From NCBI GenBank assembly GCA_965213925.1, contig OZ243927.1, positions 3,872,001 through 3,936,000 on the forward strand: a DNA stretch of 64,000 nt, written 5' to 3'. Shown here in pieces: positions 43,801 through 46,800 of the stretch (position 1 is its first letter; every line of letters starts with the position of its first letter). A program made the position numbers. This DNA is from Trueperaceae bacterium (GTDB lineage: Bacteria; Deinococcota; Deinococci; Deinococcales; Trueperaceae).

Positions 43801-46800
43801 AATAGCCCGCGCGTCCTCTACCCGCAAGGGAGCGTGATCGGGCTGACTGCCGATCACCTGGAACTCGTCATTCTCTCCTCGGTCATTACGGTGAGCGTCG
43901 GGCTGGCGCTGGGCATTCTGGTGACGAGGGATCAGTTCCGCGAGTTTTTGCCGCTCGTGAGCGACTTCGTGAACGCCGGGCAGACGCTGCCAACGCTGGC
44001 GATTGTCGCAATTATGGTGCCGGTTATCGGTTTGGGTTTTTGGCCCGCCATCGTCGCGCTTATCCTCTACGGCCTCCTGCCCGTCGTGCGCAACACGATT
44101 GCAGGCTTAGAGGCGGTCAACGACTTCATGATCGACTCGGCGCGAGGGATGGGCATGACTGCCAGCCAAATCCTCTGGCAGATCGAGCTGCCCAACGCAA
44201 GTAGCATCATCCTGGCAGGCATTCGCACGAGCGTCGTGATCAATATCGGCACGGCGGCGCTGGGTGCGTACGCGGGCGCGAGCGGGTTGGGTCGCCCGAT
44301 TGCCGGGGGGCTTTCGCAAAACATCGTCCCTTACGTGATTTACGGCGCACTGCCCGCCGCGATGCTCGCCATTTTAGTCGATTACGTCTTGGAACGGGTA
44401 GAGTTTGTTTTGACGCCTAAAGGGTTGCAGGTGGAGAGTTAGACCTTCCGTGCGGGCTTGCGTAGCGAGAAGAATTTGAGGAAACTCGCTCGAGCTGTTG
44501 CTGAGTTGCCTCGAGGCTTGTCGCGCGGCTGTGAAGTGAAAAAATACGAATTTCGATAACGGTGAAATTCGCATCACTCGAGAAAGCATCAATCCAAAGA
44601 CAACGAAAAAAGCCGCCACATATGTGGCGGCTTTTTTACGGATAAGAAAATTACCGGTTCACTCTAAAAATCTTCGTTGTAGGTACGTCGTTCTTGACGC
44701 TTTTGCCAGCCGACGCTGCACCGAAAAGGCTGAAGGAAAGGGCAACGACCAAGACTTTGATAGCAACTTTTTTCATAGCATCTCCTCCCAGAGACTTCGC
44801 TTAAAGCGAAAGTGAGTTGTTCCGGGAAGAGTTCCCGGCCGGTTGCGCTACTAGCTCCGTCTACCCTAAGCGCCCAATTACAGGATAGAGATCATCGCTT
44901 CCGTGGAGGCTTTTGCGCCTCGAGATACAATGTAGCATTCATATAGTTAAACTTGCGAGAAGGTTTTTACAAGGGGTTTAGGTAGTGGCGCAGCTTACGC
45001 GGCGTTAGGTTGCTCACTGAGCCTACTCAGCGCTGAGATAAAGGCGGACACGACCTCTTTAGGATAATGAAGCCCAGCGTACTGCTTTAACTCACCGAAC
45101 GCTTGCTCGGGGCTTAGGGCCCGGCGGTAAGGTCGATCTGTGGTCATCGCGTCATACGTATCCGCCACAGCCACAACCGAGGACTCGATCAAGATGTCGT
45201 CGCCCGACAGTCCATAGGGGTAGCCCGACCCGTCACGGCGCTCATGGTGCTGCTCGACAATTGCGCCCGCCTCTTTAAGGTAGGTCGTTTCTAACAGCTC
45301 GCGCCCGAAGGTCGGGTGCTGTTTGACAATATGCCACTCCGGAGCGCTCAGCGCGGAGGGTTTTTGTAGGATGTCGAGTGGCACCTTGACCTTGCCCACG
45401 TCGTGCAAGTACGCGCCGTAGTCGAGGAGGTAAAGTCTATCGGGGGGCAAACCCAGCTCTTGCCCGGTCGCGTAGGAGAGCGTCTGCAAGCGGCGGCAGT
45501 GCCCGGCGGTGTAGCCGTCGCGCAGTTCGACCTCGACCGCTAGGCGCATCAACTCGTCGAGTTCTTGGCTGAGGGTATGAAAGATGGGCTTCGTGGTGAA
45601 GTATAAAAAGCGCACTTCGGAGAGCGCTGAGAGCGTGCACGCCTCGTCGAGTCCAGAGGTGACGATATAGTCACCCGTGCCCAGGGTCGACGCGCCGTAG
45701 CGCAAGGTACCCGCTAAGATATAGTACGTTTCGGTCGCGTCCCCTGAAGAGATGAGCGTCATGCGCTCGCCTTGCCTGAGAGTTCCCTCGAGTACCTCGG
45801 TGCCTTGTCCGGCGACAAGTAGCCGCACGTCAACCGCTTTCGAGGCGACCCTCTCTAAACTTTCACCCCGCTTATGAAAGCGTAAACCTAGGGGCGCAGC
45901 GTCTTTCACCGCATTGTCCAACTCTGAGCGTTCATCACACATATTCGCTAAGTATGGCACTCACCGCCGTACATAGACGTTGAATATTTCGTGCAGCGCG
46001 AGGTTATTTACATTATTTCAGCAGAGGAAGCGAGAGGCTGCAACCCCTCGCTCACATCGGTTAGCGCTGGGCAGGGACGTCGCTACCTTACATATGATGT
46101 CCACCGTTGATGCTCAGCACCGTGCCCGTCACGTAGCTCGCCCGTGGCGAGAGCAAGTAAGCCACGCCCCACGCGATTTCGTCCGGCTGACCGAAGCGCT
46201 TAAAGGGAATTTCGGAAGTGATTCGGTCCTTAACCTTGTCGGGCACGCCCTCTAACATGTTCGTCTCGATAAAGCCCGGCGCGACGACGTTCGTGCGAAC
46301 CTTGTTCTTCGCGCCCTCGCGCGCGAGCGATTTACCGAAGCCCATCAAGGCGGCTTTGGCGGCGGCGTAGTTAGCTTGCCCCATGTTGCCGCGCTCGCCC
46401 ACGATGGACGAAATGAGCACGATCGAGCCCTCGCCGTGCTCGTTCATCTTGGACATCACCGGACGCACCGTGTTGTAGACGCCTGTCAGGTTCGTCTCGA
46501 TAACGGTGTTCCACTGCTCCAAATCCGACTTGACGAACAGTCCGTCCTTGGTAATGCCCGCGTTCGCCACCACGCCGTAGATCGGTCCGAGTTCTTGTTC
46601 GGTGCGCTCGGCGGCCTCTTTCATCGCCGCTTCGTCGCGCACGTCCGCCTGGATCGCTAAGGAGCCGTGCTCGCCCTCGCTCGTGCGGTAGGTATACGCC
46701 ACCTTCGCGCCCGAGTCTTCCAAGAGGTCGACGATCGCTGAGCCGATGCCCTTGTTGCCGCCCGTGACCAAAATGACCTTGTCCTCTAAACCGAGTGTCG

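Follow-up and report, generated by a model that had tools for sequence, protein, structure and literature searches.

The window, the whole stretch of 64,000 nucleotides analysed here, holds on its minus strand a small open reading frame (ORF) with its own leader and terminator, enclosed between a gene for a cupin-HD-GYP phosphodiesterase and a convergent ABC permease gene. The features, in window coordinates, are the following.

43402-44442, plus strand: ABC permease gene, convergent, next downstream in the gene neighbourhood
44606-44637, minus strand: intrinsic terminator, 14-bp stem with 7 G-C pairs and a T-run
44651-44653, minus strand: stop codon TAA, read from the sequence
44651-44776, minus strand: micropeptide ORF, 41 codons, 41 aa, MKKVAIKVLVVALSFSLFGAASAGKSVKNDVPTTKIFRVNR
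44654-44707, minus strand: predicted mature peptide, codons 24-41, 18 residues, C-terminal F-R-V-N-R
44708-44776, minus strand: signal-peptide-like segment, codons 1-23, with K2, K3 and K7, a 12-residue hydrophobic core and A-S-A, read from the translation
44776, minus strand: start codon ATG (first base), read from the sequence
44782-44789, minus strand: Shine-Dalgarno sequence GGGAGGAG, 5 nt upstream of the ATG
44822-44831, minus strand: anti-Shine-Dalgarno CUCUUCCCGG, sharing the last 4 nt of the aptamer, able to pair with CUGGGAGGAG
44828-44911, minus strand: c-di-GMP-II aptamer, RF01786, 69.1 bits against a gathering threshold of 53.5, E 2.1e-13
44906-44921, minus strand: small 5' hairpin GAGGC / GCCUC, overlapping the outer 5' strand of aptamer helix P1
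44944-44972, minus strand: candidate promoter TTGTAA-N17-TAACTA, weak, found by eye
44995-45960, minus strand: gene for a cupin-HD-GYP phosphodiesterase (longest ORF 321 aa), immediately preceding the peptide unit

A complete mini-gene behind a c-di-GMP-II aptamer had been claimed for this place in an earlier survey of the genome, and aptamer, Shine-Dalgarno sequence (SD), ORF and terminator were indeed all found in place on the minus strand, with the ORF at window 44651-44776 and the terminator beginning 14 nt past its stop. We judged the N-terminus by reading, asking of a Sec-type (SPase I) signal a basic n-region, a hydrophobic core of at least 10 residues and small residues at -3 and -1. 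Lysines 2, 3 and 7, the core VLVVALSFSLFG and A-S-A before G24 correspond to these three features. The survey's description of a signal peptide followed by a conserved C-terminal end is thus borne out as far as the translation can tell, with a signal-peptide-like N-terminus and a conserved tail. Since a consensus promoter scan of the region reported no minus-strand promoter, the micropeptide transcript may stem from read-through of the HD-GYP gene.

The aptamer matched its Rfam model over the full length (positions 1-84 of 84) and showed canonical pairing in 17 of the 22 consensus pairs. Its outer P1 pairs are poor, and the 5' hairpin competes with them; the same hairpin, with different loop sequences, precedes the aptamers of the A and B1 orthologs. 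At the 3' end, RNA folds of the window leader paired the anti-SD with the SD, and comparable complementarity was seen by eye in B1 and in the A orthologs of two congeners (G001 and G002). The survey had proposed that c-di-GMP gates the secretion of the peptide, but a riboswitch can gate its synthesis, not its secretion. As to the direction of such a switch, folding proxies for the ligand-bound versus the ligand-free state gave an unpaired probability of the window SD of 0.37 vs 0.22, and of 0.13 vs 0.17 in a second run, so that the SD was predicted to be paired both with and without ligand; the other loci were mixed, and two structural arguments made by eye point opposite ways. In the aptamers of the other peptide loci, which score 28.2-47.5 bits with Rfam, one loop position takes up an extra hairpin whose length varies from about 17 to 85 nt. 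One of them had been regarded as degenerate and perhaps dead; by eye these aptamers retain the core nucleotides and are not clearly dead. The genome holds 8 above-threshold c-di-GMP-II copies, the window aptamer being one, and the remaining ones all stand before genes for secreted proteins or lipoproteins, among them an M66-like metallopeptidase that adjoins the third cassette. A conserved leader hairpin of one genus (g43) was also considered as a regulon-wide motif and dropped, as its covariance model matched nothing beyond the five loci it was trained on, one in each genome.

When the entire genome was scanned in six frames for RVN-x-stop, exactly three frames carried [FYW]RVN[RCK]-stop, namely the window ORF, C1:1041783-1041914 and C1:1042077-1042202, in agreement with the survey's finding. 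Its claim of paralogs and congener orthologs likewise stood: G001 and G002 each hold orthologs of all three micropeptides. In nine out of nine ortholog pairs pN/pS lay between 0.12 and 0.70, with third-position changes in excess. Chance ORFs would not give such values, and these ratios indicate that the window ORF is very probably translated. SD and terminator were kept at every copy of the micropeptide gene, which in three species forms a tandem pair at the B locus, and the tail is conserved across the 9 peptides of the genus. Between the paralogous cassettes A and B of one genome the tails are essentially the same, beside enzyme sensor domains that are only 59% identical, unlike what specific receptor-pheromone pairs display.

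The enzyme encoded upstream matched Pfam HD_5 at 9.8e-30 and a cupin family, weakly, at its N-terminus. Its first 116 residues resemble ChrR-type cupins (Atlas score 0.95), and an alignment of 25 homologs shows no variation in the HD...HHExxDGxGYP residues. Its sequence relatives in the PDB are HD-GYP phosphodiesterases for c-di-GMP and cGAMP (4mcw, 4r8z and the cGAMP-specific 5z7c), and the enzyme probably degrades c-di-GMP. No membrane segment is present. In two genera the cupin-HD-GYP part is fused to TPR and GGDEF domains, the TPR lying upstream of the GGDEF, which ties the module to c-di-GMP turnover; TPR was found only in these two fused relatives, and the window enzyme showed nothing beyond HD_5 and the weak cupin match. 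An HD-GYP neighbour had been noted before at the second peptide locus only. That observation stands and extends to the window, where 218 nt separate the HD-GYP stop from the start of the micropeptide ORF on the same strand. On its other side the cassette adjoins an ABC transporter that, with its CBS ATPase, belongs to the osmoprotectant type and not to Opp.

The N-terminal domain of the enzyme occurred in 33 of 364 genomes of the phylum, every one in the Deinococcota family to which the window belongs. At 28 of 30 fetched loci the enzyme gene is followed at once by a small same-strand ORF, which encodes a micropeptide with a signal peptide in ten cases, a 14-aa product in three and a longer protein of 93-243 aa, called a long form hereafter, in 15. 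Including 21 further paralog loci, a small exported ORF directly followed the cupin-HD-GYP gene at 39 of 51 loci of the family; at the other 12 the filter used recognised no small ORF. The 14-aa versions are kept in three species, with the tail present and the signal peptide absent, and among them one Arg codon has changed from CGC to AGA. Some of the downstream micropeptides share no tail motif (their endings are FWPSK, GYGTDG and seven times GAIATK) and belong to the set by position alone. Beyond the phylum, relatives of the long form stood 2-20 nt after an HD-GYP gene of about 300 codons in 29 of 30 Bacillaceae loci, the 30th being cut by the contig end. The two genes are probably translationally coupled there. 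The Bacillaceae enzyme is 44% identical to that of the window over 283 aa, aligned from residue 38 and thus across most of the cupin-like N-terminal part. The linkage to HD-GYP is the most conserved feature of the peptide gene.

The riboswitch is far less constant. A c-di-GMP-II aptamer lies between the HD-GYP gene and the small gene in six genera, and the Bacillaceae module has none. In the 30 fetched loci of the family, 8 carried an aptamer at or above gathering and 2 further ones a sub-threshold aptamer; seven RF01786 matches scored 57.2-69.1 bits, and the aptamer of L043 is the GAG variant RF03169 (55.1 bits, gathering 40). Because most cassettes examined lack a riboswitch, gating by c-di-GMP is an addition to the system rather than its core.

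In most genera the place of the micropeptide is taken by an exported protein of about 97 aa from an unnamed family, with the pattern QEG-H...TG...HxYIW...VDP-tail and a C-terminal end of the form ...VDPFxF[SN][RK]. A profile search with this family gave 97 representatives, nearly all of 62-256 aa, with one of 36 and one of 2102 aa. An AlphaFold2 model predicted a beta-alpha-alpha-beta-beta core of about 70-75 residues (core pLDDT 88), with the C-terminal tail free and outside the folded part. Searches with this fold gave a best E of 1.1 with Foldseek against the PDB, a best Z of 3.1 with VIA-align wide and ESM Atlas look-alikes below 0.9; such negative fold searches do not show that the fold is new. 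Pfam and NCBIfam held no family for the long form and none for the micropeptide. The long form keeps a conserved folded core, a feature left unexplained if only the tail matters.

The micropeptide has no such core of about 70 residues, only 18 residues after the signal. Judging from the sequences, it is best read as a minimal form, signal peptide plus tail, of the ~97-aa exported protein, and the window peptide would be at most a derived remnant form of that family. The window tail fits F-x-[FV]-[NS]-[RKN] at the stop codon, as do the long-form endings FRFNR, FRFSN and FRFNN; its FRVNR matches four of the last five residues of the FRFNR found in the long forms of L040 and L043, and the single long form of the genome itself ends in FRFNN. 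With a matrix of the last five residues, built from long forms of other genera, the window tail ranked 147 among 113,778 frames of the genome and the third peptide 4664; with a 10-residue matrix the three peptides ranked 265, 888 and 3206, the window peptide being the one at 888. This similarity of the short to the long tails is weak on its own. A further link is the locus of G005, where the HD-GYP gene is followed by a long form ending in DPFRFNE and then by a micropeptide with two 12-residue units ending in PFRFSN and PFRFSR. These units are identical in 25 of 36 nucleotides and in 10 of 12 residues, and the long-form tail shares an identical 13-nt stretch with unit 1. Some relatives carry 2-7 copies of the tail unit, for instance two of GFKISN in the precursor of G001 (15 of 18 nt and 6 of 6 aa identical) and seven of GAIATK in that of G358. 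Most or all of the differences between repeat units are synonymous.

Parts of this arrangement recall known systems. The class of c-di-GMP-II riboswitches was reportedly described by Lee et al. in 2010. The window aptamer resembles its members in being full-length, above threshold and placed in the 5' leader of a gene with a predicted exported product; it differs in that it would control an ORF of 41 codons with a terminator of its own, and in standing between a phosphodiesterase gene and a conserved small partner gene. Riboswitches of this class (RF01786) are otherwise found before pilin, surface-protein and other genes. Our literature searches found no printed description of a riboswitch between a phosphodiesterase gene and a small partner gene. 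HD-GYP phosphodiesterases with N-terminal sensors share with the window enzyme the conserved catalytic domain and its full HD + HHExxDGxGYP signature, whereas the ChrR-like cupin at its N-terminus has no solved relative by sequence. To our knowledge, no enzyme of this kind has been reported to come with a constant small gene for an exported partner.

The closest comparison is with the RRNPP or Rap-Phr cassettes of Bacillota, which one source (PMC10075063) presents as two adjacent genes, for a propeptide and an intracellular receptor. In the window, too, a gene for a cytoplasmic sensor-enzyme is followed by one of about 40 codons with a Sec-type, signal-like N-terminus, there are several paralogous cassettes per genome, and by analogy the functional information may reside at the C-terminal end. 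The repeated units in some precursors add to the likeness, since multi-copy Phr precursors exist as well. The candidate receptor here, however, is a cupin-HD-GYP enzyme and not a TPR protein, the putative ancestral partner is a folded exported domain of about 75 residues, and the tails are not diversified among the paralogs of one genome. We know of no riboswitch control in RRNPP systems. A leader of the ribosome-arrest or secretion-monitor type was rejected: like SecM, VemP and MifM, the small ORF combines an export signal with a conserved motif immediately before the stop codon, but its transcript contains no further gene, and with a terminator following at once and the next gene convergent there is nothing for arrest to regulate. 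Sorting tags of the C-terminus, such as LPXTG and PEP-CTERM, were discarded as well, and so was the beta-signal of outer membrane proteins: the motif is not followed by a transmembrane segment, and the last residue is not aromatic.

We tentatively favour, with slightly less than even confidence, the reading that the exported tail peptide serves as the extracellular output, signal or effector, of a c-di-GMP module, in functional coupling with the HD-GYP enzyme. The ORF would encode a Sec-type pre-peptide whose working part is the C-terminal tail ...K-I-F-R-V-N-R. In the lineage of the window the folded core would have been lost, leaving signal peptide and tail, and a c-di-GMP-II riboswitch would have been inserted between the enzyme gene and the peptide gene. 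The anti-SD/SD helix overlapping the 3' end of the aptamer might then make translation of the peptide depend on the level of c-di-GMP, itself set in part by the neighbouring enzyme. In its boldest form the proposal becomes a loop in the manner of Rap-Phr, with the tail coming back to act on the cupin sensor domain. This would define a new class of peptide signalling in Deinococcota and Bacillaceae, with the cupin-HD-GYP protein as cytoplasmic receptor-enzyme and the C-terminal tail of the adjacent exported pro-peptide, sometimes in 2-7 copies, as the signal; in the lineage of the window, the riboswitch would turn the c-di-GMP state of the cell into a peptide broadcast that feeds back on c-di-GMP degradation. 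We consider this extension speculative and rather unlikely. With no membrane segment in the enzyme, an exported peptide could reach it only by re-uptake or through a relay, both hypothetical here, and cupin domains usually bind small molecules, which counts against a cupin as peptide sensor. Co-folding of the enzyme with the micropeptide precursor gave an ipSAE of 0.02, a value that, obtained without controls, counts neither for nor against binding.

A simpler account, possible though in our view doubtful, is that peptide and long form act only outside the cell and that the link to the enzyme reflects a shared, c-di-GMP-controlled expression unit with no feedback. The secreted-protein and lipoprotein genes behind the other riboswitches of the genome speak for it, as do the cytoplasmic location of the enzyme opposite a peptide with a predicted export signal and the short gene spacing in Bacillaceae, which fits simple co-expression. 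Synteny across two phyla and a 44% identical enzyme, however, amount to a tighter bond than co-regulation usually needs, and an extracellular role leaves unexplained the 14-aa tail versions that have no signal peptide. These same versions would be constitutive cytoplasmic binders if, in a manner resembling FlgM, the unexported precursor bound the HD-GYP enzyme and its export coupled enzyme activity to secretion or synthesis by removing it. Tight adjacency and probable translational coupling in Bacillaceae would suit such a partner as well. We nevertheless regard it as very improbable, given that Sec substrates are normally exported quickly and that extracellular processing accounts better for repeated tail units.

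The micropeptide might instead compete with the tail of the long form for a common extracellular partner and so modulate the long form. One long form (FRFNN) and three micropeptides ([FY]RVNR) in the same genome, the shared locus of both in G005 and the modelled position of the long-form tail outside the folded core would all agree with this. The partner is purely hypothetical, however; in a search that was not exhaustive, no long form followed the HD-GYP paralogs examined in G273 and G275, or the one locus examined in G357, and repeats of unrelated hexapeptides such as GAIATK resemble no long-form tail. We consider such mimicry quite unlikely. Least probable appears to us a peptide of little or no function, the ORF being a decaying remnant of the long form or the leader RNA alone being of importance. 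Strong tail differences between genera, large insertions in some aptamers and the 12 loci without a small ORF could be read in that way, but decay is hard to reconcile with pN/pS below 1 in every ortholog pair, mostly or only synonymous variation among repeat units, SD and terminator kept at every copy, and the tandem duplications at the B locus.

Large surface and motility genes are known targets of c-di-GMP riboswitches, and a switch dedicated to an exported peptide of 41 codons would represent a new type of output. The arrangement hints at a link, so far undescribed, between c-di-GMP and secreted peptides. More important, cupin-HD-GYP enzymes are constantly paired with small exported partners in two distant phyla, which defines an uncharacterised two-gene module. 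This module offers a lead on what orphan HD-GYP sensor domains sense and on a secreted, possibly intercellular, arm of c-di-GMP signalling, and its Bacillaceae members, for example those of Cytobacillus, Niallia and Metabacillus strains, provide genetically tractable hosts.

Another observation concerned the distribution of the peptides. When 41 genomes were searched directly with the 41-aa peptide, convincing matches were confined to the genus; a match at E = 0.2 in G005 proved real on inspection, and the other weak matches were unrelated frames. The apparent restriction to one genus, which the survey had said might be a detection limit, turned out to be one: at least 12 more genera of the family hold related small exported genes, which were found by searching with the neighbouring cupin-HD-GYP gene, and the same module was found in Bacillaceae. 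Micropeptide families missed by sequence search can thus be traced through a conserved neighbour.

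The window holds a translated, riboswitch-led mini-gene that is part of a conserved enzyme-partner module. Its elements are the following:

44995-45960, minus strand: 321-aa ORF (cupin-HD-GYP), its 3' end facing the mini-gene
218-nt spacer, minus strand, between the 321-aa ORF and the micropeptide ORF
44911-44828, minus strand: full-length c-di-GMP-II aptamer inside the spacer (69.1 bits vs a gathering threshold of 53.5, E 2e-13)
44776-44651, minus strand: micropeptide ORF, 41 codons
44637-44606, minus strand: strong intrinsic terminator

The aptamer, a member of RF01786, was the sole Rfam match across the 64-kb window. 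A Shine-Dalgarno sequence (SD), GGGAGGAG, lies 5 nt upstream of the micropeptide ATG, and the product, MKKVAIKVLVVALSFSLFGAASAGKSVKNDVPTTKIFRVNR, reads in translation as a basic n-region, a hydrophobic core of 12 residues, A-S-A and then 18 residues. Our six-frame scan for [FYW]RVN[RCK]-stop returned the same three frames genome-wide that the survey's finding had named, and only these: the window ORF and the tandem pair at C1:1041783-1042202 (B1 and B2). All three peptides have orthologs in each of the congeners G001 and G002. Since pN/pS was 0.12-0.70 in 9/9 ortholog pairs and third codon positions took most of the changes, the ORF is under purifying selection as a coding sequence. The survey had proposed a real mini-gene of aptamer, SD, ORF and terminator, and this was borne out, with each element located and pN/pS below 1 among orthologs.

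The ORF 5' of the aptamer encodes an HD-GYP phosphodiesterase (Pfam HD_5 at 1e-29) with the full set of signature residues; its PDB relatives are HD-GYP enzymes for c-di-GMP and cGAMP. The N-terminal domain, about 140 residues long, is similar to ChrR-type cupins (weak Pfam matches; Atlas score 0.95). An HD-GYP neighbor had previously been noted at the second locus only. It is indeed found there, but the limitation does not stand, since each of the seven loci first collected (two loci in each of three genomes of the genus, plus genome G005), the window included, has a homolog 5' of its peptide genes. We then used the enzyme N-terminal domain instead of the peptide as query, covering 364 genomes of the phylum. 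The domain was present in 33, all from the window's family, which corresponds to 32 of 127 family members when the window's own genome is not counted; none of the 236 genomes in the phylum's five other families had it. Several cupin-HD-GYP paralogs per genome are usual. In two genera (L040 of G303, L043 of G279) the enzyme is fused as a TPR-GGDEF-cupin-HD-GYP protein of ~800-965 aa; the cupin-HD-GYP is its C-terminal part, and downstream come a c-di-GMP-II (or GAG-variant) aptamer and a gene for a longer exported protein (long form, ~97 aa). These fusions support the view that c-di-GMP is the module's nucleotide. An ABC transporter operon of the osmoprotectant-uptake type, oriented convergently (40451-44442, plus strand; genes for two permeases and a CBS-domain ATPase), is syntenic with the cassette of the window, cassette A, in 3/3 species of the genus.

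A small same-strand ORF lies directly downstream of the enzyme in 28 of 30 fetched loci (L019-L048, window included); at L036 and L048 none was found. Micropeptides of 41-65 aa, in which only a short tail follows the signal peptide, occupy this place at 10 of the 30, and end in [FY]RVNR in the genus and in FEFNR, FEVNK, FWPSK or GYGTDG in other genera. Long forms, from sequence exported proteins or lipoproteins, occur at 15 loci (93-128 aa, apart from one that has an acidic insert and reaches ~243 aa) and end in [VI]DP[FIL]x[FA][SNG][RKNG], for example DPFEFSR, DPFRFNR or DPINFSR. Three loci carry 14-aa ORFs without signal peptide that still end in F[RK]V[NT]x. At these loci, L030, L038 and L039 (G361, G360, G362), the micropeptide slot is filled by M-[IV]-R-K-x-V-C-E-G-[FV]-[RK]-V-[NT]-x, with the SD kept and one Arg codon changed from CGC to AGA between species; these ORFs look like internal-deletion derivatives that retained N-terminus and tail. 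After addition of 21 further paralog loci (15 with HD-GYP motif out of 16 fetched, four B-type or from G005, and paralogs 3 and 4 of the window's genome), 39 of 51 loci had a small downstream gene and 12 had none under the filter used. A long form ending in PVDPFRFNN follows paralog 3, and no small ORF was found after paralog 4. At L100 (C1:4013000-4019000 of the window's genome), the third cassette of cupin-HD-GYP and long form lies ~400 nt past the terminator of a gene controlled by a c-di-GMP-II aptamer, whose product is a lipoprotein of 750 aa that combines BACON/Ig domains with an M66/reprolysin-like metallopeptidase domain. This secreted protease could be a processing enzyme.

The gene pair extends beyond the phylum. 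One distant profile match (P0047) served as query to retrieve 30 Bacillaceae loci, the genera including Neobacillus, Niallia, Cytobacillus, Metabacillus, Rossellomorea, Sporosarcina, Brevibacillus, Paenibacillus and Bacillus infantis. In 29 of them a small gene starts 2-20 nt after an HD-GYP gene of ~300 aa; the 30th is interrupted by the contig end. The enzyme shares 44% identity with that of the window over 283 residues (E 4e-82), aligned from residue 38 and thus over most of the cupin-like part, and the tails of the small proteins read DPP-x-P-x-[FYA]. Twenty of these loci were scanned, with no Rfam match at gathering level. Since the same pair occurs there without such a match, enzyme and small gene are the conserved core, to which the Deinococcota family probably added the riboswitch and the reduction to a micropeptide later.

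The long forms make up an unnamed family: searched against 1.84 billion clustered proteins, a profile built from eight of them matched just 97 representatives (E up to 1e-3), and Pfam and NCBIfam gave no match. The AlphaFold2 model (72-row alignment) showed a small, confident beta-alpha-alpha-beta-beta domain (mean pLDDT 88.3) with an unstructured tail of the last ~7 residues. No similar solved fold came up with Foldseek (best E 1.1) or with VIA-align (best Z 3.1), which is no proof of a new one. The micropeptide probably derives from the long form, as suggested by the shared slot behind homologous enzymes, the likeness of the tails (the window's FRVNR vs long-form FRFNR, FRFSN and FRFNN), an intermediate locus and genome-wide tail ranks. 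At the intermediate locus, in G005, the HD-GYP gene is followed by a long form ending in DPFRFNE and then by a micropeptide of two 12-residue units ending in PFRFSN and PFRFSR; long-form tail and unit 1 share a 13-nt identity, and the units agree at 25/36 nt and 10/12 residues. When 113,778 stop-to-stop frames were scored with a matrix built on the five C-terminal residues of other genera's long forms, the genome's own long form ranked 1, B1 145, the window peptide 147 and B2 4664. Against derivation, a 10-residue matrix ranked the three peptides only 265, 888 and 3206 among the same frames, and several micropeptides of other genera lack any tail motif. In the enzyme tree, long forms without riboswitch made up one clade (support 88/85), and micro forms, like one riboswitch-bearing long form, branched from an unresolved backbone outside this clade.

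Repeated tail units were found in three precursors: 2 x 12 residues in G005, 7 x GAIATK in G358 and 2 x GFKISN in a fifth cassette of G001, where three synonymous changes separate the copies (15/18 nt, 6/6 aa) in a gene equipped with an SD and a terminator of its own. This last cassette (L084, G001:C4:981300-984000, minus strand; ORF 1108-1233, 42 aa, signal peptide plus the two units) is not in the window's genome, and no riboswitch was found in it. Multi-copy units with synonymous divergence are typical of processed peptide precursors. The repeat copies, with divergence that is mostly or entirely synonymous, speak for a short C-terminal unit as the product under selection.

The peptide would be a secreted one, exported with cleavage of its signal peptide; we infer that the C-terminal tail is its active part and that it is functionally coupled to the HD-GYP enzyme. 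Our tentative reading, held with slightly less than even confidence, is that the exported tail peptide would be a signal or effector coupled to this enzyme. A Rap-Phr-like re-entry of the tail onto the enzyme's cupin domain seems an unlikely form of this coupling: with only 59% identity between their sensor domains, cassettes A and B still share the tail; a folded core has been retained in the long forms; small molecules are the usual ligands of cupins; and no importer was identified, the adjacent ABC system being of the osmoprotectant type. An extracellular effector without feedback is a possible alternative, if a rather unlikely one. We consider it improbable that the micropeptide is a tail mimic of the long form, and a little more so that it acts before export as a cytoplasmic partner of the enzyme; that it has no function at all is the least credible of these readings. 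An arrest-peptide leader was ruled out, there being no downstream gene.

Among known systems, the RRNPP/Rap-Phr pairs come nearest to the cassette in layout, but their defining TPR receptor is missing, and the cassette is therefore not a member. The arrangement was not found in the titles and opening abstract lines of the literature on c-di-GMP-II riboswitches, Deinococcus, HD-GYP and cupin proteins. Here a riboswitch controls a gene whose cargo and partner are of an undescribed type; that this represents a new class of peptide signaling tied to c-di-GMP is doubtful.

Between enzyme and small gene, a c-di-GMP-II aptamer was matched at 10 of the 30 loci, at or above gathering in eight (window, L022, L024, L025, L026, L032, L040 and, as GAG variant, L043) and below it in L021 (47.5 bits) and L020 (30.9 bits). 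B-locus aptamers scored 28.2 and 43.8 bits, one B locus had no match, and none was found at E up to 1 in 16 further paralog loci. Side-by-side comparison of the leaders traced the low scores in the genus to an inserted hairpin (17 to ~85 nt) at a single P2-loop position, with the conserved core intact; erosion looks further advanced in the G002 copy of the B1 aptamer. The insert measures ~17, 22, 75 and 85 nt in L016, L014, L001 and L015, varies in stem sequence by locus and is absent in the window copy. It may be a tolerated extra helix of the c-di-GMP-II aptamers of this genus. No terminator was found between aptamer and micropeptide ORF in the window. The segment CUCUUCCCGG (44831-44822) shares the last four aptamer nucleotides and can pair with the SD or with the 3' strand of P1. 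Such a three-way layout is classical for translational switches. In folding proxies the SD was mostly paired in the ligand-bound as well as the ligand-free state.

Other leaders were seen as well. In genus g43 (L023, L030, L038, L039, L046) the spacer gave no c-di-GMP-II aptamer, and a different conserved leader without Rfam match lies ~90 nt upstream of the small ORF. Its parts are a TTGACG-N17-TATAAA-like promoter, a hairpin of 7 bp with invariant loop core GCCAGAG and one compensatory change (G-C to A-U), a second hairpin of variable sequence and the SD, followed by the small ORF and terminator; its covariance model matched only once per genome. B2 has no aptamer (L001 ~6950-7060, same place in L015 and L017), and by eye a TGTGA-N6-CCACA box, apparently CRP/FNR-like, is conserved upstream of its SD in 3/3 species. 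The window's genome has eight above-threshold c-di-GMP-II aptamers in total, the others upstream of lipoproteins or secreted proteins. Three lie within 1.4 kb at C1:3694670-3696087, two in tandem (76.3 and 63 bits) before one 166-aa secreted protein and the third before a 190-aa paralog, both proteins starting HDV-x-V-x-IPNVLR after the signal. Two more, at C1:3021070-3021156 and 3986137-3986223, have equal scores (63.5 bits) and at least 200 identical downstream nt encoding a lipoprotein with NQ[TA] repeats, which looks like a recent duplication.
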